64,000 nt of DNA from a bacterium. GTDB lineage: Bacteria; Patescibacteriota; Dojkabacteria; SC72. The notes beneath the pieces were generated by a model that was given only the letters and a program-made list of their open reading frames with translations, was not told the origin of the DNA and searched no databases. How positions within the stretch are numbered: the stretch's first letter is position 1; every line of letters begins with the position of its first letter. Position numbers and translations under genes: made by a program. Where the stretch lies: NCBI GenBank assembly GCA_021108295.1, contig JAIORF010000102.1, forward strand, positions 295,963 through 359,962, given 5' to 3'. Shown piece by piece: positions 31,070 through 51,009 of the stretch.

Positions 31070-32386
31070 TTAAACTTCGTAGCTCTGAATAATATCAGTG
31101 GTATCATCTACCTTTGCGTGACGCGCTATTATACTCTGAATTACTCCTAAAGAGAATAGGGTAACCAATGTTACACTTCCTCCAGCACTTACAAGTGGTA
31201 GAGGAATACCTGTAGCTGGGATTGCTCCAGTGTTTGTAGCAATGTTTATAAATACCTCTAGTAGTAATTTCACAGTAAAACCGAGCACTATCATAGCAAA
31301 GTATGGATCATTAGTTAAGAGTATTGTTTTACTAAATCCAAAGAGTATGATTACAGCGAAGAGAAGAAGTAAGAAAATAGCGCCTACTAATCCAAATTCT
31401 TCTGCAAAGGATGCAAATATGAAGTCTGTCTGATGCTCAGGCAAAAAGCTTCTTTTACTTTGAGTACCATTTCCAAAACCCTTACCCCAGATCTTTCCTG
31501 ACCCTATCGCAATTCTTGCTTGGTTTACATTAAATCCTGCATCCCCTGTATCTTCTGCAGGATTGAGATATACCTCAATACGATCTTTTTGGTAATCTCT
31601 TAATACACTATCCCATATTGCACTTGATCCTAGTCCCAATACAATGGAAAGGAGGAAACCTATCACCACAAAGACTCTCCAAGAATCTCTGTAGAAGTAT
31701 GCGAAGATTGCGATGATGAAGGAGATAATGACAAGTACTAGCCATATTGTACTACTAAGAATTGATGCAAGTAAAAAGCCGAATGCACCCAACATGACGA
31801 TACATATGGCTATACTGTTTCTGAATTGATTATCTAGCCCTGTAAAGGCTACGAAGAACCATATAGAGAGGAGAAGTATAGACATGCTACCATCCGGTTG
31901 GAAGTAGGTTAGAAAGAATATTGGTAAAACGAGAAGCAAACTAACTACAAAGAGAATCCATTGGTTAAATCTTACTTTCAATGAAAGAACATATGCTGTA
32001 AGAAAGATAATGGTTATCTTCGCAAACTCTGATGGTTGAAGCTGTATGTCTCCGATAACTACCCATCTTTTTACATTGTTGATTATCGGTCCAAAAAGTA
32101 GTACTGCAAGAAGAGAGAGTAGCGTTATTAGGTATAGAGATAGGATAACTTGCCAACATTTTGAGTATGAGAGGTCTGTTTTTGATAGTACAAAGTATAA
32201 AAGGTACCCTACTATAATAAAAACTAACTGTTTACTTACTATAGAGGTGTCTGTAAAAGTTCCATCAGGTAGTATAGTTGTCGACAATAGAGCTATTAGC
32301 CCTATTATAGAAATGACTATACTTGGAATCAATATTTTGAGTTCAATGTTGAAATTCTTTTTTTGTTTACCTAAGAATGGCTGCAC
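31070..32386 (-). CDS. ftsW: SEDS-family peptidoglycan glycosyltransferase FtsW/RodA
   Basis: Polytopic; QARIAIGSGKIWGKGFGNGTQS...FLPEHQTDFIFA. Sits next to ftsZ. Confidence 0.8.
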   Translation of the reverse strand: MQPFLGKQKKNFNIELKILIPSIVISIIGLIALLSTTILPDGTFTDTSIVSKQLVFIIVGYLLYFVLSKTDLSYSKCWQVILSLYLITLLSLLAVLLFGPIINNVKRWVVIGDIQLQPSEFAKITIIFLTAYVLSLKVRFNQWILFVVSLLLVLPIFFLTYFQPDGSMSILLLSIWFFVAFTGLDNQFRNSIAICIVMLGAFGFLLASILSSTIWLVLVIISFIIAIFAYFYRDSWRVFVVIGFLLSIVLGLGSSAIWDSVLRDYQKDRIEVYLNPAEDTGDAGFNVNQARIAIGSGKIWGKGFGNGTQSKRSFLPEHQTDFIFASFAEEFGLVGAIFLLLLFAVIILFGFSKTILLTNDPYFAMIVLGFTVKLLLEVFINIATNTGAIPATGIPLPLVSAGGSVTLVTLFSLGVIQSIIARHAKVDDTTDIIQSYEV

Positions 32387-32395
32387 AACTCTATA

Positions 32396-33634
32396 TTACT
32401 TCTTTTTCCTCATGAATGCAGGTACATCCAATGGGTCTTTACTGTCAACTTCAAAATCTAGAGATGATTTTTCCTTTTCTGAAGACTCTTTTTCATCTGA
32501 CATATCAAATTCTAGACCACTAGATTTCTTCTCACTAGAAGGGACTTCGTCTTCTTGAAGTTTCTTTTCCATGTTAGGTGTCGTAAATCCAGTAAATACG
32601 TTAGGTGTGCTCTCCTCTTCTTCAATAGGCTGAGAGAAAGTACTGCTATCATCAGATTTCAATTCGGAGGCATATGGCTGATCTGTTTTACCAATACCTG
32701 TAGCTACAATCGTTATTATAATTTCATCACCAAGTTCTTCATTTATCTGTGCGCCAAACTTTATATTGGCAGATGGATCTACAGCCTCTTTGATAAGTTC
32801 TGAGACTAAACTAATCTCTGTTAATGACAAATTCGATCCTACAATATTGTAGAGAATCCCAGTAGCTCCCTCAATAGACATATCTAAAAGAGGACTTGTG
32901 GTTGCAAGCCTTGCAGCTTTTTCAGCCCTATCCTCTCCACTAGCACGACCAATACCCATAAGAGCGGTACCTGCGTTTTGCATTACAGATTTTGCATCAT
33001 TGAAGTCTGCATTGATATATCCTGTTTGACTAATTAGGTTTGAGATACTACTTACACCTTCTGCAAGTACAGAATCCACCATCTTCATAGCCTCAATAAA
33101 GGATACAGAGTCATCAACTATCTCAAGTAATCTCTGATTAGGGACCACTATGAGTGTATCCACTTTATCCTTAAGTGCTGCGAGTCCTTCTTCTGCTACT
33201 ACCTTTCTTCTTTCACCTTCAAAATCAAATGGTTTTGTAACAACGGCTACAGTTAAAGCTCCCATATTCTTTGCTACACCAGCTATAATTGGAGCAGCTC
33301 CAGTACCAGTTCCACCTCCCATACCTGCTGTGATAAATACCATATTCGCACCATCTACCAACTCTTGTATCTGATCTAAACTCTCTTCTGCAGATTGAGC
33401 TCCTAGTTCATGATTACCTCCAACACCCAAACCTTTAGTTAGTTCTTCTCCTAACTGTAATGTTGTAGGCGCAAGGGACTGTTTAAGAGATTGAGCATCT
33501 GTATTCAAGGAAACGAAATCTACACCTGGGATATCATAATCACCTATCATTGTGTTAACGGCATTACAGCCACCACCACCCACTCCTACGACCTTGATGT
33601 CCACTACACTATCTGCACTTGTTGTAACTAGCAT
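32396..33634 (-). CDS. ftsZ: cell division GTPase FtsZ
   Basis: GVGGGGCNAVN and tubulin signature GGGTGTG. Acidic C-terminal tail. Confidence 0.95.
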   Translation of the reverse strand: MLVTTSADSVVDIKVVGVGGGGCNAVNTMIGDYDIPGVDFVSLNTDAQSLKQSLAPTTLQLGEELTKGLGVGGNHELGAQSAEESLDQIQELVDGANMVFITAGMGGGTGTGAAPIIAGVAKNMGALTVAVVTKPFDFEGERRKVVAEEGLAALKDKVDTLIVVPNQRLLEIVDDSVSFIEAMKMVDSVLAEGVSSISNLISQTGYINADFNDAKSVMQNAGTALMGIGRASGEDRAEKAARLATTSPLLDMSIEGATGILYNIVGSNLSLTEISLVSELIKEAVDPSANIKFGAQINEELGDEIIITIVATGIGKTDQPYASELKSDDSSTFSQPIEEEESTPNVFTGFTTPNMEKKLQEDEVPSSEKKSSGLEFDMSDEKESSEKEKSSLDFEVDSKDPLDVPAFMRKKK

Positions 33635-33656
33635 TTCTATTAATTAAAAATTTATC

Positions 33657-34958
33657 TTAAGGCAGTAATGACTTGAACCAATCTGTAATTTTACCAAATA
33701 TTCCTCCCATATCAACTTTTTTACTTTCAGTATTATTAACATCCACTTCATCATCTAACGCATGTTTGATAAGGCCCTGTACACAAGAGTATGAAGGATC
33801 AGAGATTTCCTCTGTCATACCACTTAGACCAGAAGCATATCCAATTCTAGCAGGGACACCAAATACACCTTGTGTAAACTTTGTAATACCACTTAACAAA
33901 CTTGTACCTCCAGTAAGTACAATACCAGCAGGCATAGCAATCTCGTATCCAGCTCTTTCTACATTCTCTTTTGCCATATCAAATATTTCTTCACTTCTTG
34001 CTTCTACAATATCTTTTAGCATTTCTTTTGTCACTGTTTTTTCTGTTTCAATATTTATTAACGAAAGATCGAGTAAATCACCCTTAGGTTTGTCCTCTTT
34101 CTTCTCTTCAACAATCTTTCTTAGAAGAGCAGGTGTCTTATCCGTTTTCTTGTCGACTTCCATACGCTTATCAGAAAGTAATTCATCCATATTTACTTTA
34201 ATCTTTTCTGCGTCTTCTAATGACACTTGGAGACCAATTGCAATATCACTTGTAATATTGACCCCACCAAGTGGAATACAACCACTGTATATTATTGCTC
34301 CCTCTTGAAAAATAGCTATACTTGTTGTACCAGTACCAATATCGAGTAATGTAACACCCAACTCCTTCTCAGTATCAGTAAGTACTGCAGCAGCTGATGC
34401 CCATCCGGTAAATACCACATCATATACATTAAGACCTAGTTGCTCTACACACTTCTTAAGATTTTGCCAATATGAATTTGGTGCAGTAATTATATGTGTC
34501 TCTACTTCTAATCTTCCACCACTCATTCCAATTGGATATTTAATTCCACCTTGATTATCTACCATAAATTCTCTAGGGATGATGTGTATTGGATTAAGGT
34601 TTTCAGGCAAAGAGAGTGTACGAGCATTTTCAATAGCTCTGTATGTGTCATCAATGGTAATCTCTGAACCTGCCACTGCGACAACCCCCTTATTATTAAG
34701 ACTGGTAACTAAATCTCCATTAATGGATACATAAACATCTGAAACAGTAACCCCTGCCATTCTTTCTGCAGCATTTACACTCTCAGAAATTGCATTTGTA
34801 GCTTCATCAATATTTACAACAACACCTTTCTTAATTCCCTTACTTGGATGTGAACATACTCCAATTACGGTTGGTTTACTATCCTCTTCCACTGCTGATA
34901 TTACTGTAGTGATCTTCGATGTACCTACATCAATTGCTGTTATAATTTTTCGTGCCAT
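33657..34958 (-). CDS. ftsA: cell division protein FtsA
   Basis: Actin-like ATPase. IDVGTSKITTVI and LDIGTGTTSIAIF motifs. Confidence 0.9.
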   Translation of the reverse strand: MARKIITAIDVGTSKITTVISAVEEDSKPTVIGVCSHPSKGIKKGVVVNIDEATNAISESVNAAERMAGVTVSDVYVSINGDLVTSLNNKGVVAVAGSEITIDDTYRAIENARTLSLPENLNPIHIIPREFMVDNQGGIKYPIGMSGGRLEVETHIITAPNSYWQNLKKCVEQLGLNVYDVVFTGWASAAAVLTDTEKELGVTLLDIGTGTTSIAIFQEGAIIYSGCIPLGGVNITSDIAIGLQVSLEDAEKIKVNMDELLSDKRMEVDKKTDKTPALLRKIVEEKKEDKPKGDLLDLSLINIETEKTVTKEMLKDIVEARSEEIFDMAKENVERAGYEIAMPAGIVLTGGTSLLSGITKFTQGVFGVPARIGYASGLSGMTEEISDPSYSCVQGLIKHALDDEVDVNNTESKKVDMGGIFGKITDWFKSLLP

Positions 34959-35044
34959 TTGTTTTACTTGATAGAAATTACATCAAAAAGAACTCTGTTT
35001 TCGTAGTACTAATATAATAAAAAACAGGAATAGATGCAAGTACC

Positions 35045-35824
35045 TTAGAGAAGTTCCATAACAGGTCTTTCAAATCTCATGTCTAAATATTTATATTCTA
35101 TACTCTCGATATTAACCTTTTCTAATATCAAATACAATTTTGCAAGCTGCTCATCAAAACTATTAGCAGACTCTATCACTATTTCTCTCGGTCCATCCGA
35201 GATTCTTAAAACATCTTCATCCACCTCTATTGTAGATATTTCCCAGACGAATTCTTCCAGAACTTGTACTACCTGAGATATCTCACTATCAAATATTAAT
35301 CTCTTGTCTGCTACAATGTTTTGACTTGTAGACAACTGTATACCATTTTCAAGATTGCAGACTTCATATTCAGACTCTTTTTCAAGTATTAGACCCTCTT
35401 GGGAGAAAATGTAACAATTTTCTCCATATTCAAGGTAGTACATAGGATTATATTCTTCTATAGTAAGAGTAATAGAATTGGGAAAAATCTTTTGTGCATC
35501 AACATCTTTCACATACCCATTAACCTCAAATATTTCCTGTTTAAGTTCTTTTAGATCCAACGAGAAGTATCCTTCCCCTAAATATTTATCTGTAGCTTCT
35601 GATAGATTTGTTACATATTGTAGCTCTTTGCTGTGTTCAATCTTTTTGATTTGGAATACTCCTAACCATGTTAGTAAAGTAATCGTAAGTATTATTATAA
35701 GGATTATAATAAAAGGTTTGAGTATTTTAAACCATTTCTTACGAGAGAGTTTTTTATAAAAGGATATCTTTAGGGTAGTTTCTTCTTTATCCTTATGACG
35801 GTTTTTGAATTGAGCAATGTCCAT
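35045..35824 (-). CDS. ftsQ: FtsQ/DivIB-like cell division protein (TM + POTRA)
   Basis: Single N-terminal TM followed by a POTRA-like region. Lies upstream of ftsA. Confidence 0.55.
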   Translation of the reverse strand: MDIAQFKNRHKDKEETTLKISFYKKLSRKKWFKILKPFIIILIIILTITLLTWLGVFQIKKIEHSKELQYVTNLSEATDKYLGEGYFSLDLKELKQEIFEVNGYVKDVDAQKIFPNSITLTIEEYNPMYYLEYGENCYIFSQEGLILEKESEYEVCNLENGIQLSTSQNIVADKRLIFDSEISQVVQVLEEFVWEISTIEVDEDVLRISDGPREIVIESANSFDEQLAKLYLILEKVNIESIEYKYLDMRFERPVMELL

Positions 35825-35857
35825 ATATGTATATTAACATATTTTACTACCACTTCT

Positions 35858-37117
35858 TTACCCAGTAAGATTCTCCATTCTGTTTAACAAATATTCAGAT
35901 ATCGGAATCTCCATATTAGTATTGGGATCATCAATAGAAAAAGTCTCTAGTTTTTCTAAAACAGCACCTAATTCTCGTTCCACTTGTTCTCTATTCATCT
36001 CGAATGTCTCTGCAATTTCAGACGGATGATGGGGATTATTAACAAAAGCAATTCCAAAACGTAAACAAACTAATCTGTATTCTCTCTCGGACAGGTTCTC
36101 ACATAAAAGATATGGTAATTCACATAAGTCTGTTAGACTTGTTGCTAATTCCTTGTCAGATATCTCACTTATATTCAACTTAAGGATACTCCCAGATTCT
36201 ATCGACCACAAAACGGAGCTACTTATCTGTTGCGCTTGCTGTTTTGACATATCAAATATCCTCGAGATTCCCCGAAAAGTCATAACATCTCCAAGAATTC
36301 CAGATCTAAGCATATAGATTCCAAAAGTACGCAGATTTCTTACTTTGCAATACCTTAAAATCTTTTTAAGAGTTTCTGAAACTTCCATCCTCTCGTCAAG
36401 CATACTTAAACCATCATTTTCTTTGGAAAGATAATTATGCGCCTTATCTCTATCTCTAAAATCGACAGATTCATCATTTAACGAAAAGGGTTCGTTCATT
36501 GCCCTCACTGCTGCAACCCTATTTTCTATCTTTACTTTGCTATATCCAAGTTCTATGCAACGACTTCGTACTCCCTCTTCTGTAAGTAATTCATCAAGTT
36601 TAAACACATCTTCGGACATATTCACAGGAACTTGAATCAAATTCCCGTGTTCTTGTAAGTGGCTCGATATTGCTTCTTTTATCCACCATATAGCATAGGT
36701 AGAAAACCTTTTATTCCTACTAGCCTTCTCTAAATCAAATTTCCTTAAAGCAATGACTATTCCCCATCGACCTTCCTGAAGAAGTTCTTCTCTTTCTGCA
36801 TGTTTGCTATAACCTCTTTGTTTTTTATACAAACTTAGAACCAATCCTCCATTTCTACAAACAAACTCCTTTTCAATCTCATAAATCTCCTCTTGTAACG
36901 AATTATCTTCCTTATGAACTTCAAACTCTTTTCTTAATATTGCATATCGTTCTAATTGAGCTCTCTCTTCCTCTGGTGTAAACAGAGGATACTCAGCCGT
37001 CAATCTTTTCATTTCGGCAAAAAGCCAACTATCTGAGGTATCAAGATATACCTCCTTCTCTGGAATTCCTTCTGCTCTTACAATTTCTTTATCTACACTC
37101 TTTATCTTATGTGTCAT
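35858..37117 (-). CDS. RNA polymerase sigma-70 family factor (paralog 1)
   Basis: Region 2 LLQEGRWGIVIALRKFDLEKASRNKRFSTYAIWWIKEAISSHL. Region 4 LSEREYRLVCLRFGIA...SEIAETFEMNREQVERELGAVLEKL. Confidence 0.75.
   Translation of the reverse strand: MTHKIKSVDKEIVRAEGIPEKEVYLDTSDSWLFAEMKRLTAEYPLFTPEEERAQLERYAILRKEFEVHKEDNSLQEEIYEIEKEFVCRNGGLVLSLYKKQRGYSKHAEREELLQEGRWGIVIALRKFDLEKASRNKRFSTYAIWWIKEAISSHLQEHGNLIQVPVNMSEDVFKLDELLTEEGVRSRCIELGYSKVKIENRVAAVRAMNEPFSLNDESVDFRDRDKAHNYLSKENDGLSMLDERMEVSETLKKILRYCKVRNLRTFGIYMLRSGILGDVMTFRGISRIFDMSKQQAQQISSSVLWSIESGSILKLNISEISDKELATSLTDLCELPYLLCENLSEREYRLVCLRFGIAFVNNPHHPSEIAETFEMNREQVERELGAVLEKLETFSIDDPNTNMEIPISEYLLNRMENLTG
36047..36175. repeat. 129-nt segment 100% identical to 37355-37483 (inside sigma paralog 1)
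   Basis: Direct read-through comparison. The surrounding gene sequence is only ~55-60% identical at the protein level. Confidence 0.85.
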
Positions 37118-37166
37118 GACTTAAATAGATCTAGTGGGGAGTAAAATATAATTATATTACAGTTCC

Positions 37167-38426
37167 TTACTTCGTAAAATTTCTTAAATTAGACAAATAC
37201 TCAGATACTGTAATCTCCGTATTAGTATTGGGATCATCTATGAGAAGAACTTCCAATTTCTCCATAATGGTGTCCAATTCTTGCTCTACTTGTTCTGTAT
37301 TTGTTTTTAATGTTTCTGCAATTTCAGACAATGGACAAGGTTTATTATCAATAAGAGCAATTCCAAAACGTAAACAAACTAATCTGTATTCTCTCTCGGA
37401 CAGGTTCTCACATAAAAGATATGGTAATTCACATAAGTCTGTTAGACTTGTTGCTAATTCCTTGTCAGATATCTCACTTATATCCAATTTACCAATCCTT
37501 CCATATACTACATTTCTTCGTACTCCATCAGTTATTTGCCTTACTCTCTCTCGTGATATGTTAAATATCTTTCCAACCTCTTCTAGTGTCATACCACATC
37601 CAAGAACTCCAGCTTTAAGCATAAACATTCCGAAATCCCGTATGTTTTTCTCTTTGTAATACTTAAGAATTTTCTTGGAGACTTCTGTAACCAACAGTCT
37701 ATTTTCTACTCGTCTACGAGTTGCCTCCCAGTCATTATTTGAAAGCTTCTGATATCCATTCTTACAATTCTCAGGTTCTTCATCTAATGACTCCTGCGAT
37801 GCTGCTCTAACTGCTGCAATTAACGCTTTCGTTTTTTGTTCTTTATACCCAAGCTCTTCACAACGGGCTCGAACAGCCTTTTCCGTTAATGGTAATGGAC
37901 AATTAAGTTTTGACAAAGCCCAATGAGTACTTGCAGAAACTCGCATTACACTTCTATTTTCTCTCTGATATCGCTCCATGAACGATTTAAGCCACCAACA
38001 TGCATAAGTAGAGAATTTTTTATTTCCTCCTATCTTGGCTAAATCAAACTTTCTTAAAGCCCAAACTATTGCCCAGCGACCTTCTTGGATAAGGTCATCT
38101 GCATCTGCAAATTTAGCAGGGTCCTTTATTTTACTATATTGTTTTAGAATTAATCCTCCATTTCTACAAACAAACTCGTTTTCAATCTCATTAATTTGAT
38201 CCTCAATTTTAGACACATTCCCATTATTACTATCCTTTAACTCTTTTCTCAATTTTGCATATCGTTCTAATTGAGCTCGCTCAACCTCTGGTGCAAATAC
38301 TGGGTACTCAGCTATCCATCTTTTTGTCTCGATAAAAATCCTACTCCTTGAGTTATCAAGATAATCCTCAGTTCTTTCCATTGTTATTGTAGATCCTTCA
38401 ACCTCACTCCCTGCATTGTTTAGCAT
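37167..38426 (-). CDS. RNA polymerase sigma-70 family factor (paralog 2)
   Basis: Region 2 LIQEGRWAIVWALRKFDLAKIGGNKKFSTYACWWLKSFMERY. Region 4 LSEREYRLVCLRFGIAL...SEIAETLKTNTEQVEQELDTIMEKL. Confidence 0.75.
   Translation of the reverse strand: MLNNAGSEVEGSTITMERTEDYLDNSRSRIFIETKRWIAEYPVFAPEVERAQLERYAKLRKELKDSNNGNVSKIEDQINEIENEFVCRNGGLILKQYSKIKDPAKFADADDLIQEGRWAIVWALRKFDLAKIGGNKKFSTYACWWLKSFMERYQRENRSVMRVSASTHWALSKLNCPLPLTEKAVRARCEELGYKEQKTKALIAAVRAASQESLDEEPENCKNGYQKLSNNDWEATRRRVENRLLVTEVSKKILKYYKEKNIRDFGMFMLKAGVLGCGMTLEEVGKIFNISRERVRQITDGVRRNVVYGRIGKLDISEISDKELATSLTDLCELPYLLCENLSEREYRLVCLRFGIALIDNKPCPLSEIAETLKTNTEQVEQELDTIMEKLEVLLIDDPNTNTEITVSEYLSNLRNFTK
37355..37483. repeat. 129-nt segment 100% identical to 36047-36175 (inside sigma paralog 2)
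   Basis: As above. Encodes ...ISEISDKELATSLTDLCELPYLLCENLSEREYRLVCLRFGIA. Confidence 0.85.
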
Positions 38427-42924: not shown

Positions 42925-44001
42925 ATGAATACCCTCACAAAAAAAGATTTAGAAAACACAAAAAGACTTCTTGAATCAATCATTAACTCACTGAAACTCA
43001 CTGAGAAAGAACAAAAACTTAAAGAATTAGAAAAGGACTCCTTGAAGACCGACTTCTGGTCAGACAATGTACAAGCACAAAACACCATGAAGCAAATAGA
43101 AAGCATACGCAAAGAAAAAGACACATCAACTACACTCACCAACGACATTGATTCACTAATTGAATTGTATGAGATAGAAGAGAATAAAGAACAACTAACA
43201 GAAGAATACAACAATATCCATAGTAGAATAAAAGACTTTGAGAAACTTAAATTCCTCTCAGGCAAATATGACAACAACAATATTCTACTAAGTATTCATG
43301 CAGGACAAGGAGGAACTGAATCCAATGACTGGGCTTCTATGCTTCTTCGAATGTACCAAATGTATTGTGATAAAAAAGGTTGGAAATATGAGATAGAAAA
43401 TGCAGTAAGTGGAACTGAAACTGGAATATCTAGTATTACAATGAGAATTACTGGAGAATATGTATATGGACTACTCAAGGAAGAACACGGTACACACAGA
43501 CTTGTAAGAATTTCTCCCTTTAATGCACAGGGCTTGAGACAAACCACATTCGCTGGAGTTGAGATAATACCAATACTTGAAAAGATAGACACCGACATAG
43601 AAATACCTGAAAACGATATAGAGTTTAAAGCTGTAAGAGCTAGTGGACCAGGAGGACAGAAAGTAAACAAAACCTCCTCTGCTGTACAAATTACACATAC
43701 ACCTACAGGAATTACAGTTCACTCCTCTACACAAAGAAACCAACTACAAAACAGAGAGAATGCAATGAACCTACTCAAATCAAAACTTGCAAAGATTCTA
43801 GAAGAAGAAAGAATAGAAGAAATAGATCAAATTAAAGGCAATTACAAACAAGCAAGTTGGGGTAATCAGATACGAAACTATGTACTACACCCATATAAAT
43901 TGGTGAAAGATTTAAGAACAAACATTGAAAGTAGTAATCCCCAATTTATACTAGATGGCAATCTTGATGAATTTGTTGAAGCGCAACTAAGAATACAGTA
44001 G
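42925..44001 (+). CDS. prfB: peptide chain release factor 2 (uninterrupted ORF, no programmed frameshift)
   Basis: SPF tripeptide motif (RISPFNAQGLRQTTFAG) and GGQ (SGPGGQKVNKTSS). Confidence 0.85.
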   Translation: MNTLTKKDLENTKRLLESIINSLKLTEKEQKLKELEKDSLKTDFWSDNVQAQNTMKQIESIRKEKDTSTTLTNDIDSLIELYEIEENKEQLTEEYNNIHSRIKDFEKLKFLSGKYDNNNILLSIHAGQGGTESNDWASMLLRMYQMYCDKKGWKYEIENAVSGTETGISSITMRITGEYVYGLLKEEHGTHRLVRISPFNAQGLRQTTFAGVEIIPILEKIDTDIEIPENDIEFKAVRASGPGGQKVNKTSSAVQITHTPTGITVHSSTQRNQLQNRENAMNLLKSKLAKILEEERIEEIDQIKGNYKQASWGNQIRNYVLHPYKLVKDLRTNIESSNPQFILDGNLDEFVEAQLRIQ

Positions 44002-44030: not shown

Positions 44031-44966
44031 TTGCTCATGATCAAATTTGATTCCGTTACCAAAAGATACAACCAGCACATTATCGCTCTGGAAAACGTAT
44101 GCTTTGAGCTTGATCAAGGAGACTTCTGCTACATTACAGGCCCTTCAGGTGCTGGGAAGTCTACAATACTTAAACTTCTCATCAAAGAGGAAACTCCTAC
44201 CTCAGGCAATATCTTCTACGAAGATATTGAAGTTCCTAAAATTCCCCATACAATGCTTCCTTCTTACAGACAAAAGTTAGGTGTAGTATTTCAAGATATG
44301 AAATTACTCGACACACGCACACTTGAAGAGAATATTGCATTTGCCTTAGAAATACTAAATACACAACCACTAAAGATTAAGGACACTACGGACTACCTTC
44401 TAGAATTAGTAAATCTTGAGGATAGACGCAACCTACTACCTACCCAGCTATCAGGAGGAGAACAACAAAGAGGAGCAATAGCTAGAGCACTCGCAAGTAA
44501 CCCTTCCCTATTTATTGCAGATGAACCTACGGGGAATTTAGATAAAGACAATTCCCTTATGATTCTAGATATACTGAAGAAAATAAACCAATCAGGAACT
44601 ACAGTCATAGTAATTACTCACGACATGGGATTAGTTGACACATCTAATGGCTCCTCACGAAAAATTCATTTAGAAAAGGGAAAGGTTGCTTCAGACAGTC
44701 AACCACAAAAGAAGAAATCTCCAAAACCAACTGTCAAGAAAGTAAAGAAGAATACAAAGACCAAGATGGACTCACAACTTTCTTCACTCAGTAAAGGACT
44801 AGTTGCGAAATTAGAAAAAAGTGCTATTTATTCAAATGAGATACTACTCAGTCTAACTCAGAAAGACCTTAAAACTCTCAAGCTTTCAAGAAAAGAAGGT
44901 AAGGAGTTAGAAAAATATATTAAAAATTACTTAAGTAAGAAACAAAATGAAACAAAAGGTAACTAA
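44031..44966 (+). CDS. ftsE: cell division ATP-binding protein FtsE with ~90-aa Lys-rich C-terminal extension
   Basis: Walker A GPSGAGKST, ABC signature LSGGEQQRGAIARAL, Walker B FIADEPTGNLD. Confidence 0.85.
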   Translation: MLMIKFDSVTKRYNQHIIALENVCFELDQGDFCYITGPSGAGKSTILKLLIKEETPTSGNIFYEDIEVPKIPHTMLPSYRQKLGVVFQDMKLLDTRTLEENIAFALEILNTQPLKIKDTTDYLLELVNLEDRRNLLPTQLSGGEQQRGAIARALASNPSLFIADEPTGNLDKDNSLMILDILKKINQSGTTVIVITHDMGLVDTSNGSSRKIHLEKGKVASDSQPQKKKSPKPTVKKVKKNTKTKMDSQLSSLSKGLVAKLEKSAIYSNEILLSLTQKDLKTLKLSRKEGKELEKYIKNYLSKKQNETKGN

Positions 44967-45855
44967 ACCAAGAAGAAACAAATGGTTCACACTATCTACA
45001 ATATTTGTAACTGCCATTGTATTTACAATCTCATCTTTCTTTATCAGTCTTGCCATAATTGGGAAGAGGGCTGTTAACTACTACGAACAAAAAGCTCAAG
45101 TCATTATCTTTTTTGATAAAGAAACTCCTCAGGAGGAAATCTTTGCTGTAAGAGACAAGATAGATGATCCAGAGCTAATAGAATCTATAGACTATCTCTC
45201 ACAAGAGGATGCTCTAGTAATTTATCAAGAAGACTTTGCAGACAGTCCTGACCTAATCTCTACAATTACAGCTGATGCACTACCTCCTAGTTTAGAGGTC
45301 AGAGCAGTCTCTATTGACTCTCTTCTTGAAGTAATTGAGATGATAAATCTGGAAAAAGATACCAATGTATATATTGATGATGTCATGTATTTCAAAGATG
45401 TCGTTGATAATATGAAAACACTCTCTGGCATTATCAATGTCGGTGCAATCGTCGTAATCAGTGCCTTGACACTAATTACATTCTTTCTAATCAGAGTAAC
45501 TACTGGCTTAAATATTAAACTTCACCAAGAGGAAATTAAGATAATGCATCTAGTAGGTGGTACTGACTCCTTTATCAAAACCCCATTCCTAGTGGAAGGA
45601 GCACTCTACGGTCTCCTTGGTGGTCTCCTAGCTTCATCTTTAATACTAATCCCATGGTATCTAATCGTCTTCTACTCACAAGGCGCAGACTTTTGGTACT
45701 GGATATCACAACTTCTAGTGGATTTCGACTTACAATTCTTAAATGAATTCAACCCACTCTTTATTCTGGTATACTATATTATACACATTAGCACTGGTGT
45801 ACTTCTCGGTGTAATTAGTAGCTACAGTGCAGTACATAAATATCTTAATAATTAA
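44947..45855 (+). CDS. ftsX: cell division permease FtsX
   Basis: N-terminal TM, periplasmic loop, three C-terminal TMs. 20-nt overlap with ftsE. Confidence 0.8.
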   Translation: MKQKVTKPRRNKWFTLSTIFVTAIVFTISSFFISLAIIGKRAVNYYEQKAQVIIFFDKETPQEEIFAVRDKIDDPELIESIDYLSQEDALVIYQEDFADSPDLISTITADALPPSLEVRAVSIDSLLEVIEMINLEKDTNVYIDDVMYFKDVVDNMKTLSGIINVGAIVVISALTLITFFLIRVTTGLNIKLHQEEIKIMHLVGGTDSFIKTPFLVEGALYGLLGGLLASSLILIPWYLIVFYSQGADFWYWISQLLVDFDLQFLNEFNPLFILVYYIIHISTGVLLGVISSYSAVHKYLNN

Positions 45856-45858
45856 CAA

Positions 45859-47151
45859 ATGAGACTTAGAATAAAGAAAAATAAAACATACCTTCTCTTT
45901 TTACTAATTCCGGCCCTCATCCTCATACTCCTCTTCTCACAAAGGAATGACATTCTCGCAGAGGAGACTCTTTGTCCATCATATATTGATCCTGATTCCA
46001 TAGAATGTTTAGATTACCTAAGAGATCAGTTGAGTGACATTAATAGTTCCAATAGCAATATTCAAGGCCAACTTGAAGACGAAGCATACAAACAACTCTC
46101 TCTTCAAGGAAAGATTGAATATATTGACGAACAAATTGCACAGACAGAGTTGGCAATTCAAAGTGCAGAGCTTGAAATAGCGGCATTCAATATTGAGATT
46201 AAGATAATGGAAGATAGCATAGGAGAGATAGAAGATGATATCGCATTGAGTATGCAAGAAATTAATCAAATGGAAAAGTCTGTTAATCTTCGTCTTACAG
46301 AGTCTTACAAATACACCTTCATAGGCCCTCTTGAGATCTTCCTTAATAGTTCAAACTTAGATCATATTCTAAGAAAGACAAAGTACCTACTTATTACAAA
46401 AGACCAAGATGTTGAACAATTAACAATATTAAGTGATAAAGAAGCAATTCTTCTTTCTGAAGAGGAAGAGCTTTCTCTACAGAGCGCTGCATTACAACAA
46501 GTACGAAATGATTTAGAGTCTGAACAAAAAGAAATCTTGGTACAAAGAATGGAACTCAATGAACAAAAGGACGAAAAAGCATATCTCCTATCAGAATCCA
46601 TTAAGAAAGAGGAGGCACTACTAGCATCGTGGGATGCCAACAGAATAAAACAGGGACTACTTGACGAAGCAGTTATGCAATATATCGCGGAACATGGTGA
46701 TGAGATGGCTGATTACGGATGGGTAAGTACTGGGGACTGGATTGGTAACTTGGGAGGTTTGGCAAATGGGTGTAGTACAGGACCACACATCCACTTCTCA
46801 ATTGATTACATGAATTCAGGATACTATCATGGCTATGGTCAGATAGACCCATGGGGTGGATATCTCACAAAGGGACCCGATTGGTGGACCATATGGGGTG
46901 GCTGGAAATATTACTATATCAGAAGTAATTCTCTTAGAGTACCTCTCTCTGGGATGGTTGTTCTTACACAAGACCATCACATTCTTCCTAGGAAGTCTAT
47001 CGATATTTATAGTTTGAACGGTTATGGTTCCCCTGTCTATGCTGCCATGTCTGGGAATCTATTCAAAGGTACAGATAGGTGTGGAGATACTTACGCCGTT
47101 ATCGAGAACTCTAGTACAGGCTTAAGGACTGCATATTTCCATCTTCAGTAG
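45859..47151 (+). CDS. EnvC/PcsB-like coiled-coil protein with M23 (LytM) peptidase motifs in apparently permuted order
   Basis: N-terminal TM, ~250 aa coiled coil. WVSTGDWIGNLGGLANGCSTGPHIHFSI comes first. HHILPRKSIDIYSLNGYGSPVYAAMSGNL...GDTYAVIENSSTGLRTAYFHLQ* comes last. Confidence 0.65.
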   Translation: MRLRIKKNKTYLLFLLIPALILILLFSQRNDILAEETLCPSYIDPDSIECLDYLRDQLSDINSSNSNIQGQLEDEAYKQLSLQGKIEYIDEQIAQTELAIQSAELEIAAFNIEIKIMEDSIGEIEDDIALSMQEINQMEKSVNLRLTESYKYTFIGPLEIFLNSSNLDHILRKTKYLLITKDQDVEQLTILSDKEAILLSEEEELSLQSAALQQVRNDLESEQKEILVQRMELNEQKDEKAYLLSESIKKEEALLASWDANRIKQGLLDEAVMQYIAEHGDEMADYGWVSTGDWIGNLGGLANGCSTGPHIHFSIDYMNSGYYHGYGQIDPWGGYLTKGPDWWTIWGGWKYYYIRSNSLRVPLSGMVVLTQDHHILPRKSIDIYSLNGYGSPVYAAMSGNLFKGTDRCGDTYAVIENSSTGLRTAYFHLQ

Positions 47152-47218: not shown

Positions 47219-48055
47219 ATGTCAAAAGCTAAGAGTAAGAAAAAGGTTACAAAAGCAAAATCTTCCCCAAAGAAAAGTCTTAAATCCTTCAAGATAAAGT
47301 TTGAGAAACCAACTTGGGCTGGAATTAAAGAAAGTAAAATTACAAGGTATTCACTTCTAGTTCTCGCAATACTTGTATGTTTTGTAATTGTCGACTTCGG
47401 TGTTCAATATCTTAATAATGATTACAGTGCTGTAGTTGTTAATGGAGTAAGAATATCAAGAAAGGAATATTACTACAGGCTAGACCAAGCATATGGTAGT
47501 TCAATTTCTGCACAGCTTATTCAAGAAGAGTTAGTAAGGCAAGAAGCACTCACAGAGAATGTAGTTGTATCTGAAGAGGAAGTACAGGAAGAGATAGATA
47601 AGATTGCAGAGCAACTTGGTGGTAGTGACCAGCTTGATATTTCCCTAGAGGCTTACAATTTAACCATTGAAGATCTTAAAGAGCAAATTAAGATTGATTT
47701 ATTGGCAAACAAGATACTAGAACCCGGTATTGAGTACAGCGAGGAGGATGTTAAAGCTTTCTTCGAGCAGTACAGCAATGTAATTTTCGCAGAAGAAGCT
47801 TCCGCTTTAGAAGAGGGAGAACTTCTTGATTACGACACCTTCAGAGAGAAGACTTTAGAGATATATCTTCAGCAAGAGGTTGAGAGTGCAAAATCTACAT
47901 GGTTAATGGAATTAGAGGGTAGTGCAAAGATACAAAACAATGCAGTAGATCGTCCTGAGTACGAGATACTGGGTGCTACTAGAAATATTGTAACCAATAT
48001 TATAGATGAGGCTAATACCAACAACGAGATTAAGGAAGTCATAATAGAGGAATAG
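47219..48055 (+). CDS. SurA-N-domain-like periplasmic chaperone-like protein (no PPIase domain)
   Basis: Lys-rich N-terminus plus TM. SurA_N-like VVNGVRISRKEYYYRL... Confidence 0.4.
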   Translation: MSKAKSKKKVTKAKSSPKKSLKSFKIKFEKPTWAGIKESKITRYSLLVLAILVCFVIVDFGVQYLNNDYSAVVVNGVRISRKEYYYRLDQAYGSSISAQLIQEELVRQEALTENVVVSEEEVQEEIDKIAEQLGGSDQLDISLEAYNLTIEDLKEQIKIDLLANKILEPGIEYSEEDVKAFFEQYSNVIFAEEASALEEGELLDYDTFREKTLEIYLQQEVESAKSTWLMELEGSAKIQNNAVDRPEYEILGATRNIVTNIIDEANTNNEIKEVIIEE

Positions 48056-49054: not shown

Positions 49055-50683
49055 TTACTCCTGTAGGCTATCTAGCCATTCGCAAAGTCCGAAGACTTCA
49101 CAGGAGCTGTCATACCAATTCCCCGCTGTTTCAACCCCTGAACATGGGTTGGAGAAGATCATTTTGGCTCCTAGGCGTTTACCTAGCTCCCAGGTTTGTG
49201 GTTCACAGCCATAAGCACACTTCTCAGCCAGTTCTTTCTCTGTGTAGAAGTGGTCTTTGGGAGCTTCCAGTTGGCAGATTGTGGTCCAGTTATCATGATC
49301 CGAACCTAGCCGGCGAAACAAATGCATCCACCGATCCGTTCTTACCGGAATACATGGTTCGCATTCCGCACGTTCGGGCCAAAGGACTATTTCTCCACTG
49401 AGAAACAATTCCGCTACCTCAAGGAAGTTTTCCTTTTCCCAAACGAAAGTATCGCATTCTCTTGACACTTCTTGGGTGTCAATGTATTTCACGTCACAGA
49501 CATAAGCCTTAAAACAATCTGAAAGATCTATTCGACCCTCAGATCCCTCTTGAGTCTTGGTTACTTCCCTACTACCAGGATCACTCCCCTCATCAGTGTC
49601 GCAGACGTGTGCCGTAAACTCGGAGTCTACAAACTCTTGAGTCCAGTCTCTGGCAGTTACCTGCGTTCCATAGAGAGTAAAGGTACCATCGCCATTGTCA
49701 ATCCAGTCATCTTCCCAAACCGGATCACCAATATCATACCAATCGCCGTACTCTTTCCCCTGATCAATTGTTGTCTCACAGGTGGCCGTTCCGGTTTTGG
49801 TAACTTCCCGGCTTCCAGGATCACTCCCCTCATCAGTGTCGCAGACGTGTGCCGTAAACTCGGAGTCTACAAACTCTTGAGTCCAGTCTCTGGCAGTTAC
49901 CTGCGTTCCATAGAGAGTAAAAGTTCCATCGCCATTGTCAACCCAGTTTTCTTCCCAGACCGGATCACCAATATCATACCAATCGCCGTACTCTTTCCCC
50001 TGATCAATTGTCGTCTCACAGGTGGGCGTCCTAGTTTCGGTTACTTCCCGGCTACCAGGATCGCTCCCCTCATCAGTGTCGCAAATATGAGTCTCGTCAT
50101 ATTTATCTACGACTTCCTGCGTCCAGTCCACAGCAGTGGCTTGGGTGCCGGTTTGGGTAAAAGTCCCATCACCGTTGTCGATCCAGTCATTATTCCATAC
50201 AGGATCTCCAACGTCGTACCACTCTCCGTACACCTTATCTAAGGTGACGGTTTCCGAACAAAGTACATAACACTTCTCCACCGTGAACGTATACTGTGTT
50301 GAAGTTGCCCTCAACACCCATCCCCAATTTAGAAACCCTATCCTCTTCCACTCATACACCACCGAATGGGTAGTGTGGACACCAGGAACAATATCTTCCA
50401 CTAATGTCTCCATGTGGATAGTGCCCCAGCCGGTATCGTCATCTACGACTTCACCGTCTACAAGGGTTTCTGACTTATAGAACCTGTTGTGTGAACCCAC
50501 CCATGTTGATTTTATGGTGGCTTCCTCACACACGTCAGTATTAGTTGACATCCCTTGAAAATGACATGCCAAAGGCCTGTCTACGGGCATTGCTGCTACC
50601 GACTTAACGGAGAAACTTGAAAACCCAAGCACTCCCACTACCAGTAGTAATACTGCTGTTAATAGAACATTTTTCTTCTTCAT
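49055..50683 (-). CDS. secreted Cys-containing protein with three 80-aa tandem repeats
   Basis: Start moved to MKKKNVLL (ATG at 50681-50683, preceded by AAGGAAAG). Signal peptide present. Repeats TCETTIDQGKEYGDWYDIGDPVWE.NW.DNGDGTFT.YGTQVTARDWTQEFVD...CDTDEGSDPGSREVT x3. Cys-rich C-terminal domain. Confidence 0.6.
   Translation of the reverse strand: MKKKNVLLTAVLLLVVGVLGFSSFSVKSVAAMPVDRPLACHFQGMSTNTDVCEEATIKSTWVGSHNRFYKSETLVDGEVVDDDTGWGTIHMETLVEDIVPGVHTTHSVVYEWKRIGFLNWGWVLRATSTQYTFTVEKCYVLCSETVTLDKVYGEWYDVGDPVWNNDWIDNGDGTFTQTGTQATAVDWTQEVVDKYDETHICDTDEGSDPGSREVTETRTPTCETTIDQGKEYGDWYDIGDPVWEENWVDNGDGTFTLYGTQVTARDWTQEFVDSEFTAHVCDTDEGSDPGSREVTKTGTATCETTIDQGKEYGDWYDIGDPVWEDDWIDNGDGTFTLYGTQVTARDWTQEFVDSEFTAHVCDTDEGSDPGSREVTKTQEGSEGRIDLSDCFKAYVCDVKYIDTQEVSRECDTFVWEKENFLEVAELFLSGEIVLWPERAECEPCIPVRTDRWMHLFRRLGSDHDNWTTICQLEAPKDHFYTEKELAEKCAYGCEPQTWELGKRLGAKMIFSNPCSGVETAGNWYDSSCEVFGLCEWLDSLQE
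49559..50278. repeat. 3 x 240-bp tandem direct repeats (units 1 and 2 ~97% identical, unit 3 diverged) inside the secreted-protein gene
   Basis: Units begin with ggttacttccctactaccagg (49559), ggtaacttcccggcttccagg (49799) and ggttacttcccggctaccagg (50039). Confidence 0.8.
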
Positions 50684-51009
50684 CGTTCTTTCCTTTTTCT
50701 CTAGTCTAATAGGACACATCCAACTTTCTTGACAATATCACCTCCTTAAAGGTTCTTACATAACATATTTAATATTTACTTTTTAAAGATCTCTTTAGTT
50801 TGCTTTCATTAAGAAAAAGTTCTCAAACTACTCACAAACCCAAATTTGATTGACAATACAAAATTGTACAATCGCTATAATATAGCCTATAATACGCAGA
50901 TTGTCAATCTACAAACACCCTCACAGACTTCTTTTTCTATGAAAGATTTTGTATAATATAACCTTACACATTGTAGAATGTGAAGTATTTATATTACACC
51001 TAAGTAACC

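Follow-up and report, generated by a model that had tools for sequence, protein, structure and literature searches.

A natural circular permutant of the M23/LytM peptidase domain in the probable FtsEX partner protein of Dojkabacteria

The window, by which we mean the whole 64-kb stretch of Dojkabacteria DNA that was analysed, contains a run of closely spaced genes that includes ftsE, ftsX and a gene for a coiled-coil M23 protein. The genes of this block, with the domains of FtsE and FtsX, are as follows.

42925-44001, plus strand: prfB (release factor 2), with PCRF and RF-1 domains, which opens the conserved block
44031-44966, plus strand: ftsE, an open reading frame of 311 residues
44037-44684, plus strand: ABC ATPase core of FtsE, residues 3-218 (numbered from the TTG at 44031), matching TIGR02673 and ABC_tran
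44685-44774, plus strand: linker of the FtsE tail, Lys/Glu-rich and of variable length in an alignment of 30+ Dojkabacteria FtsE proteins
44775-44963, plus strand: C-terminal conserved module of FtsE, about 60 aa, SAM-like and lineage-conserved in the alignment
44947-45855, plus strand: ftsX (FtsX_ECD, E 6.7e-12; FtsX permease, E 1.5e-7)
45097-45342, plus strand: extracellular domain of FtsX, residues 51-132 (FtsX_ECD)
45859-47151, plus strand: M23 protein, 430 aa, with its stop codon at 47149-47151
47219-48055, plus strand: SurA_N/PrsA-like membrane-anchored protein (SurA_N_3, E 6e-10), the conserved downstream neighbour

The ATG at 44037 is a likelier start for ftsE than the TTG at 44031. 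Residues 3-218 of the 311 match TIGR02673 (E 4.7e-75) and ABC_tran (E 5.5e-33), and the translation shows a Walker A motif (GPSGAGKS), an ABC signature (LSGGEQQR) and a Walker B motif (FIADEPT). Beyond this core lies the C-terminal tail of about 90 aa that a preliminary description of this DNA had called unusual; it is real, and it is conserved across the alignment of Dojkabacteria FtsE proteins. A conserved SAM-like module closes the tail, as judged from profile matches: Pfam SAM_2 was found in 10 of 22 members (best E 7.7e-5) and SAM_1 in 6 of 22 (3.7e-5), and the profile of the module matches the SAM domain of EphA1 (E 0.003). Scanned as a single sequence, the FtsE tail of the window has no Pfam match, the SAM-like matches appearing only in the member-wise scan.

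The ftsX gene overlaps ftsE by 20 nt and its product matches NF038347 and TIGR00439 (E about 1e-42). Only 3 nt separate ftsX from the M23 gene in the window, and the stop codon of the latter is followed by the next gene after just 67 bp. The order prfB-ftsE-ftsX-M23-prsA-like was kept in all 39 loci checked, wherever the contig reaches far enough: prfB lies upstream of ftsE in every locus of sufficient contig extent, the SurA_N/PrsA-like gene lies downstream of the M23 gene in all loci extending far enough, and the permuted M23 gene described below is directly 3' of ftsX in 39/39 upstream-extending loci, with relatives down to 29% identity. The arrangement of ftsE, ftsX and a coiled-coil LytM gene, which had been recognised from the window alone, is thereby borne out by open reading frames, domain matches and conserved neighbourhood.

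The M23 protein is divided into the following parts.

45871-45939, plus strand: N-terminal hydrophobic helix, residues 5-27, a signal anchor or signal peptide (hydrophobic sequence, helical in the AlphaFold2 model)
46000-46695, plus strand: two-helix antiparallel coiled-coil hairpin (helix 48-153, tip, helix 164-279)
46300-46398, plus strand: hairpin tip ESYKYTF...LRKTKYL, residues 148-180, the most conserved stretch by conservation and the putative contact with the FtsX extracellular domain
46702-46878, plus strand: M23 C-block, placed first, with the GD-box-like hairpin GWVSTGDWIG, Cys305, the HxH motif and a tail (canonical M23 columns 101-141, E 1e-15)
46786-46794, plus strand: HxH motif, His310-x-His312, within the C-block
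46879-46932, plus strand: aromatic-rich beta-hairpin linker, residues 341-358, which connects the canonical C- and N-termini (AlphaFold2 strands 336-344 and 350-356)
46933-47148, plus strand: M23 N-block, placed last, with Pro362, His374-(x)7-Asp382, Cys408 and Tyr426-x-His428 (canonical columns 17-93, E 1.7e-15)
47149-47151, plus strand: stop codon, two residues past His428, with the same end in relatives

The protein is predicted to be of an exported type, with a long antiparallel two-helix coiled coil followed by a hydrolase-type domain. At the hairpin tip, Y150 and K151 are invariant and S149, Y152, R172, Y176 and L177 are nearly so; an automated pattern scan also picked the tip as the most conserved pattern of the family. 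It could be argued that such a protein is an autolysin whose gene shares a transcript with ftsEX but whose activity is not under FtsEX control. Adjacency is the sole direct evidence of a functional link, and the two canonical coiled-coil M23 genes of other Patescibacteria that we examined lie beside ftsW-murG, not ftsEX. However, the M23 gene follows ftsX immediately in every upstream-extending locus, even among distant relatives, and FtsX-binding partners are characterised by just such a coiled-coil hairpin, strongly conserved at its tip. We give mere co-transcription only a very slim chance.

In the hydrolase-type domain the HxH block (residues 288-317) stands before the H(x)nD...YxHL block (residues 359-430), the reverse of the canonical order. 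The Pfam Peptidase_M23 model reaches 30.5 bits against a cut-off of 28.7, and only as the sum of two stretches; some relatives have no precomputed M23 match, or only a "faint" one. When the protein was compared with PDB chain 9gy1_A using phmmer, query residues 381-428 aligned to residues 45-90 of the chain and residues 288-315 to residues 101-126. A domain profile built from 40 sequences gave the same reversed two-stretch pattern in the four PDB M23 chains whose alignments were inspected (9gy1, Gp16 9m7n, zoocin A and ShyA), with a best E of 6e-12, and a purpose-built canonical M23 HMM placed its positions 91-120 on residues 288-319 and its positions 31-82 on residues 378-430. With hhalign, the profile in its natural order yielded two separate matches to canonical M23 (E 1e-15 and 1.7e-15), and the de-permuted profile yielded a single match of 116 columns that spans canonical columns 17-141 of 142 (E 4.2e-31), with a score of 177 that is close to the sum of the two natural-order scores. 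The canonical set behind this E-value consisted of domains from tandem M23-M23 proteins; a second canonical set, the coiled-coil M23 proteins of other Patescibacteria, replicated the result (de-permuted E 3.5e-22). The aromatic hairpin linker (residues 341-358) has no counterpart in canonical M23 according to hhalign. By these alignments the M23/LytM domain is a natural circular permutant, and the M23 homology of both blocks is not in doubt.

The reversal of the two blocks had been proposed in the preliminary description, and phmmer, the profile, the HMM and hhalign all recover it. The junction had been placed where a canonical M23 domain runs from "Y.HL" into "V.aGd.IG", and hhalign agrees, locating it between the canonical "YxHL" and "V..G..IG". 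The protein had also been said to end right after FHLQ, and 80/80 first-round homologues end 0-4 residues past Y.HL. These homologues form 80 clusters at 34-89% identity, all of which end at Y.HL, and about 70 of the top 148 representatives (50% identity) are permuted. In total, 211 full-length relatives have the same block order and the same C-terminal end, and all named relatives among them are from Dojkabacteria/WS6. Each of the 211 has a single C-block and a single N-block that ends at the C-terminus; tandem canonical M23-M23 proteins, which are common, are distinct from them in having three or four profile stretches. The permutation is a heritable trait of the clade as far as these sequences show, and not an artefact of partial or tandem domains.

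Three artefacts had to be considered: an assembly error, a frameshifted canonical gene and a misalignment of the motifs. A misreading of the canonical order is ruled out by the canonical HMM placement and by hhalign, the profile alignment showing the motifs reversed. An error of assembly or reading frame, a worry raised in the preliminary description, is excluded by the recurrence of the same order and stop in 211 proteins from independent assemblies and 37 species-representative genomes, as well as by the short distance to the next gene. With the relatives, the stop position and the hhalign statistics all refuting it, we treat the probability of any such artefact as negligible.

AlphaFold2 folds the permuted region into one compact domain (pLDDT 93, pTM 0.89) in which no residue falls below pLDDT 70. 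The second helix of the coiled coil continues directly into the first beta-strand without a separate arm helix, and the best structural match of the full-length model is EnvC in the FtsEX complex. A different view of the two blocks is that they are remnants of two M23 domains and do not fold together within one chain, so that the protein would form a domain-swapped dimer or have only one structured block. A C-block followed by an N-block is what a trimmed M23-M23 tandem of the common kind would leave, and the connection is short in some members (in P0080, HLHF and the conserved Pro are about 21 residues apart). The compact monomeric prediction argues against this, as does the connection in the window protein, where 44 residues, with a hairpin of their own, are long enough to close the domain. 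EnvC, moreover, sits on the FtsX dimer as a single, asymmetric copy (PMC11627006).

The cysteine pattern also ties the two blocks together. An even number of cysteines occurs in the domain of 198/211 members, and all 145 members with a cysteine in the loop before HxH also have one in the other block. A simple association between Cys305 and Cys408 is not significant (p 0.37), and the link between blocks appears only when the partner cysteine is allowed to shift, in sequences that are phylogenetically related. A disulfide between Cys305 and Cys408 probably staples the two blocks. We consider two separately folding remnants improbable and favour a single domain re-formed from both blocks.

The residues expected of an active M23 enzyme are retained in almost every relative: H310 in 211/211, H312 in 210/211, D382 in 209/211, Y426 in 210/211 and H428 in 211/211. 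In the window protein Arg378 occupies the position of the canonical first His, with His374, a putative ligand, four residues before it. Of the relatives, 209/211 carry a His N-terminal to the Asp at varying distances (n = 3, 5, 7...); the H(x)nD spacing is n = 3 in 60 members, n = 5 in 86 and n = 7 in 13. Spacings of n = 7 and n = 12 occur in active M23 enzymes, namely phi29 gp13 and LasA respectively (PMC9662197), and from conservation we infer that His374 may reach the metal. The permuted domain is probably an active hydrolase and not an inactive activator of the EnvC type, because His310, His312, Asp382 and His428 are essentially invariant.

The main alternative is that the permuted LytM domain has no catalytic role and acts as a regulator in the manner of EnvC, NlpD or DipM, using its groove to activate a separate amidase or lytic transglycosylase under the control of FtsEX. 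Such a role would be consistent with EnvC being the closest structural match to the full-length protein and with the Arg at the position of the canonical first His. However, EnvC-type factors have lost their Zn ligands (PMC11627006; PMC9662197), unlike the permuted family with its near-complete retention of the HxH, the Asp, the His of YxH and an upstream His. No second M23-like gene or amidase gene is present within the 64-kb window, which argues weakly against a regulator as well. We regard this alternative as unlikely. The preliminary description had suggested that the permutation could mark an inactive EnvC-type regulator; near-invariant ligand and catalytic residues in 211 relatives speak against that suggestion, and the protein does not belong among the EnvC-type activators.

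The LytM domain of EnvC (E. coli, V. cholerae, P. aeruginosa) has the canonical order and lacks Zn ligands; EnvC activates AmiA/AmiB, and a "restraining arm" helix holds it (PMC11627006). The Dojkabacteria domain, in contrast, is permuted, keeps its catalytic residues and is modelled without a separate arm. The Dojkabacteria protein resembles PcsB (S. pneumoniae), CwlO (B. subtilis) and RipC (M. tuberculosis) in that the coiled-coil partner is itself a hydrolase (a predicted one in Dojkabacteria) and in that all of these bacteria lack an outer membrane. Activation of those three is thought to involve mechanotransmission from the ATPase activity of FtsE (PMC11627006). For catalysis those three use cysteine peptidase domains (CHAP or NlpC/P60), while the domain of the Dojkabacteria protein is of the M23 metallopeptidase type. 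Relative to canonical M23 domains (LytM, lysostaphin, ShyA, Csd3, zoocin A, StM23), the block order is reversed, the termini lie beside the catalytic His and the former termini are bridged by an additional aromatic hairpin. The canonical coiled-coil M23 proteins of other Patescibacteria (P0322 from Sungbacteria, P0333 from Paceibacterota) and of Clostridia (annotated "EnvC") are similar in length (410-460 aa), in combining a coiled coil with M23, in their intact catalytic motifs and in "TQ" and "TD..C" features, with 36% consensus identity to the de-permuted profile; they differ in their canonical order and in ending "...NP..YL". Natural permutation has a precedent in another peptidoglycan-hydrolase fold, NlpC/P60 (LRAT and YaeF families; PMC6403190), and the hybrid-barrel superfamily (HABAS), which includes M23, contains permuted topologies defined by the position of a GD-box-like motif (PMC11515920). 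These precedents concern other families or a superfamily-level comparison, and none is a permuted M23 peptidase.

Overall, we think it likely that the FtsEX division ABC complex of Dojkabacteria has the product of the third gene as its extracytoplasmic partner, and that this product carries a permuted, Zn-dependent M23 peptidoglycan endopeptidase. The protein would be membrane-anchored and would combine an EnvC/PcsB/RipC-like two-helix coiled coil with a C-terminal endopeptidase of the LytM type. Its chain would run from the GD-box-like hairpin through the HxH strand and the canonical C-terminal tail into the added aromatic beta-hairpin linker, and from there along the two-thirds that are N-terminal in canonical M23 (H(x)7D ... 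YxH) to its end two residues past His428. Both blocks would re-form one M23 sheet with one Zn site (His374, Asp382, His312) and a catalytic pair, His310 and His428. By gene order and by analogy with EnvC and RipC (PMC11627006), the conserved hairpin tip may bind the extracellular domains of FtsX. As FtsE binds and hydrolyses ATP, cleavage of septal peptidoglycan would then be switched on in the permuted protein itself, as with PcsB, CwlO and RipC, and no separate amidase would serve as the cutting enzyme, unlike in the EnvC route. The permutation would have arisen once, most simply from a tandem M23-M23 protein that lost its first N-block and last C-block.

A further and more doubtful idea is that the permutation is functional and not neutral, and that FtsEX switches the enzyme by straining or completing its active site. 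The chain termini would have been moved into the catalytic centre, with about 7 residues linking the coiled-coil lever directly to the GD-box hairpin and the HxH strand, and with the lever lying beside the free C-terminal His428. Such mechanotransmission, if true, would be unlike the displacement of a restraining arm in EnvC or of an occluding helix in PcsB and RipC. If true, the proposal would also provide the first example of an active M23 metallopeptidase controlled by FtsEX.

M23/LytM peptidases, such as lysostaphin, LytM and EnvC, are among the best-studied cell-wall hydrolases and are enzybiotic leads. To our knowledge, all of them have been described with one topology. The full-text literature that we searched, which is thin on subscription journals so that absence is not proof, contained no description of a permuted M23/LytM domain or of FtsEX in Dojkabacteria, and the string "permut" is absent from a 2022 review of the M23 family; structural novelty of the predicted fold is plausible. 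A clade-wide permutant that keeps every catalytic residue would mean that the M23 fold tolerates re-wiring at the loop beside the catalytic His, a point of use in protein engineering and in studies of how this fold comes together. Because its new N-terminus is fused to a putative FtsEX-binding coiled coil, the protein may also serve as a natural test case for force transmission from FtsEX to a hydrolase domain. It would add a predicted metallopeptidase to the FtsEX-controlled enzymes of bacteria that lack an outer membrane; the division machinery of its lineage, the CPR/Patescibacteria, is almost unstudied.

Positions 44031-47151 of the window are filled by three closely spaced + strand genes:

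44031-44966, + strand, ftsE (the likelier start is the ATG at 44037)
44947-45855, + strand, ftsX, overlapping ftsE by 20 nt
45859-47151, + strand, ORF of 430 amino acids encoding the permuted M23 protein, starting 3 nt past the ftsX stop codon

Domain searches assigned FtsE residues 3-218 to the TIGR02673 FtsE equivalog (E = 4.7e-75), with intact ATPase motifs, and found FtsX_ECD and permease domains in FtsX. The 5' neighbour of ftsE is prfB, a SurA_N/PrsA-like gene and hpf lie 3' of the M23 gene, and ftsW, ftsZ, ftsA and an ftsQ-like gene are located approximately 9 kb from the ftsEX-M23 genes. G+C composition is uniform (~36-37%). The SurA_N/PrsA-like gene (47219-48055) encodes a membrane-anchored protein with no match to a PPIase domain. 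It comes after the M23 gene in every related locus with enough downstream sequence, and its product could act as a dedicated chaperone or as a further partner. The prfB gene (42925-44001) is a single uninterrupted ORF of 358 amino acids, apparently without the programmed +1 frameshift that occurs in the prfB of many bacteria. Two adjoining 419-aa ORFs, one matching only sigma-70 region 2 and the other only region 4, come after the division cluster of ftsW, ftsZ, ftsA and a POTRA/FtsQ-like gene (31070-38426, - strand). A 554-aa ORF (49055-50719, - strand) has no Pfam match, is rich in Cys, Asp and Trp, and contains a 240-bp (80-aa) tandem repeat (2.2-2.8 copies, 84-92% identity); of all 2-kb bins in the window, the one that holds this ORF has the highest G+C content (0.416).

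The preliminary description proposed that the M23 domain is circularly permuted, with the breakpoint between the canonical 'YxHL' motif and the GD-box-like 'V..G..IG' hairpin, and all comparisons bear this out. The Pfam Peptidase_M23 match barely passes (30.5 versus 28.7 bits) and consists of two separate stretches. In phmmer searches of PDB sequences, residues 381-428 paired with the N-terminal block of StM23 (9gy1_A 45-90), whose C-terminal HxH block (9gy1_A 101-126) paired with residues 288-315; phage Gp16 (9m7n) gave the same reversed pattern. A profile of 40 permuted domains (A2) matched M23 structures with a best E-value of 6e-12; in the four PDB chains with printed alignments (9gy1, 9m7n, zoocin A 5kvp, and ShyA 6u2a), A2 positions ~112-164 fell on the N-terminal block and ~24-56 on the C-terminal block. 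Conversely, positions 91-120 of a canonical profile, built from ordinary M23 proteins (52 domains), fell on residues 288-319 and positions 31-82 on residues 378-430.

The decisive test was a profile-versus-profile comparison using hhalign. In natural order, two separate local alignments were obtained (query 7-54 to canonical 101-141, E = 1e-15; query 73-148 to canonical 17-93, E = 1.7e-15). When the alignment columns were re-joined in silico as [355-430]+[282-354], these became one 116-column alignment spanning canonical positions 17-141 of 142 (E = 4.2e-31), with a score of 177, approximately the sum of the two natural-order parts. A second canonical set, the coiled-coil M23 proteins of other Patescibacteria, went from two matches of E ~1e-11 to a single match of 3.5e-22. 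The alternative that the alignment had been misjudged and the motifs are in canonical order is contradicted by the order in the profiles and by the split of the natural-order alignment.

The permuted order is a family trait. A first homologue search returned 80 clusters (34-89% identity, 388-453 amino acids) with full-length coverage, and in all 80 the protein ends 0-4 residues past Y.HL, in line with the earlier observation that the window protein stops right after FHLQ. When 1.84 billion representatives were searched exhaustively with a profile, ~70 of the top 148 matches were permuted-type proteins, each matching the whole profile in a single stretch reaching the C-terminus. Including distant members in a third search enlarged the set to a total of 211 full-length permuted members. 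All named members are Candidatus Dojkabacteria or candidate division WS6. Scanning one genome per GTDB species recovered 37 loci, mostly labelled Dojkabacteria or WS6, with some uncultured Saccharibacteria and one Microgenomates. All 39 loci that were examined retain the order prfB-ftsE-ftsX-permuted M23-prsA-like as far as their contigs reach. A frameshifted or misassembled canonical gene is ruled out by these 80 clusters, 211 members and 39 loci, and by the intergenic gap: only 67 bp separate the M23 stop codon from the next gene, too little to hold a missing M23 block. Some Dojkabacteria carry tandem paralogues of the permuted gene after ftsX (locus L001, 3672-4958 and 5001-6311; locus L005, 3989-5278 and 5299-6693), one with a canonical H(x)3D motif and one with an expanded loop. 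In L001 the expanded H(x)nD loop resembles that of the window protein, and the H(x)3D paralogue has a Cys-containing insertion.

EnvC-type regulators have lost the Zn ligands (PMC11627006), and the preliminary description raised the possibility of such an inactive variant. The catalytic positions are near-invariant among the 211 members: His310 (211) and His312 (210) of the HxH motif, Asp382 (209), Tyr426 (210), and His428 (211). A His precedes Asp382 in 209 of 211, at variable spacing (n = 3 in 60, n = 5 in 86, n = 7 in 13, up to 20). The window protein has His374-(x)7-Asp382, with Arg378 at the canonical His position; in the M23 first motif, H(x)nD, n is 7 in phi29 gp13 and 12 in LasA (PMC9662197). 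A His ~30 residues before HxH (LytM His260) takes part in catalysis (PMC9662197), and its counterpart here is His428, two residues from the C-terminus. Selection thus appears to have kept a complete active site, unlike in EnvC-type regulators, which argues for an active enzyme and against the inactive variant.

AlphaFold2 modelled residues 262-430, using the A2 alignment, as a leading helix followed by eleven strands (pLDDT 93.1, pTM 0.89, all residues ≥70). From the high pTM, residue conservation and cysteine pattern, we infer that the two blocks probably re-form the M23 sheet and Zn site. The number of Cys residues in the M23 domain is even in 198 of 211 members, and a Cys in the loop before HxH, present in 145 members, is in every case accompanied by one in the N-block; the window protein has exactly two, Cys305 and Cys408. 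Among these phylogenetically related members, this pattern suggests a disulfide stapling the C-block to the N-block; a simple two-column association of Cys305 with Cys408 was not significant across the 211. The full-length model (pLDDT 82.9) has a hydrophobic helix (5-27), a hairpin formed by helices 48-153 and 164-279, and a beta domain from residue 287, with no separate helix between coiled coil and domain. Conservation within the protein peaks at the hairpin tip (residues 148-180, ESYKYTF...LRKTKYL), which would fit a role in FtsX binding by analogy with EnvC and RipC, whose coiled-coil tips bind FtsX (PMC11627006).

FtsE is only ~220-230 amino acids long in model bacteria. The Lys-rich C-terminal extension initially noted in the 311-aa window FtsE (residues 219-311, 44685-44963) is real and lineage-wide: a Lys/Glu-rich linker that varies leads into a conserved module of ~60 amino acids at the C-terminus. 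The window tail alone had no Pfam match; scanned singly, 10 of 22 tails matched SAM_2 (best E = 7.7e-5) and 6 of 22 SAM_1, and the tail profile weakly matched SAM domains of EphA1 (E = 0.003) and CNK2. A SAM-like interaction module is a reasonable reading of these weak matches.

Canonical M23-M23 tandem proteins are detected by the permuted-domain profile as well, which bridges from the tail of their first domain into the head of their second; the top 148 representatives from the 1.84-billion-protein library include at least 51 of them (e.g., P0100, P0107, P0122, and P0130). Such proteins are the intermediate expected if a circular permutant arises by duplication and then trimming. Paceibacterota and Sungbacteria have coiled-coil proteins of comparable length whose M23 domain is catalytically intact and in canonical order, and so do Clostridia, where they are labelled 'EnvC'. 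In the two Patescibacteria examples examined (Sungbacteria and Paceibacterota loci L040, 4001-5323, and L041, 4001-5269), the gene has ftsW-murG and a tRNA-synthetase gene immediately upstream and is not adjacent to ftsEX. Because all permuted members have the same termini, the simplest reading of the sequences is that the permutation arose once, in or near Dojkabacteria.

No account of a permuted M23/LytM domain came up in full-text literature searches, and the string 'permut' is absent from a dedicated 2022 review of the M23 family (PMC9662197). The permuted M23 domain is a real and clean finding; permutation itself has precedents in NlpC/P60 hydrolases (PMC6403190) and, at superfamily level, in the hybrid-barrel (HABAS) domains, which include M23 (PMC11515920).

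FtsE with ATPase motifs, FtsX with an extracellular domain, and an exported coiled-coil protein with the full permuted M23 catalytic set are always encoded together. The tip of the coiled coil would be lodged between the extracellular domains of FtsX. ATP cycling by FtsE would alter the shape of this coiled coil, after which the M23 domain would cut septal peptidoglycan cross-links. The permutation sets the coiled-coil junction and free C-terminus beside catalytic His428 and the HxH strand, so activation by FtsEX could act directly on the active site, a speculative and rather unlikely reading. Dojkabacteria, like other CPR bacteria, are thought to lack an outer membrane. The permuted protein, built with the domain family of EnvC, would be a functional analogue of PcsB, CwlO and RipC.
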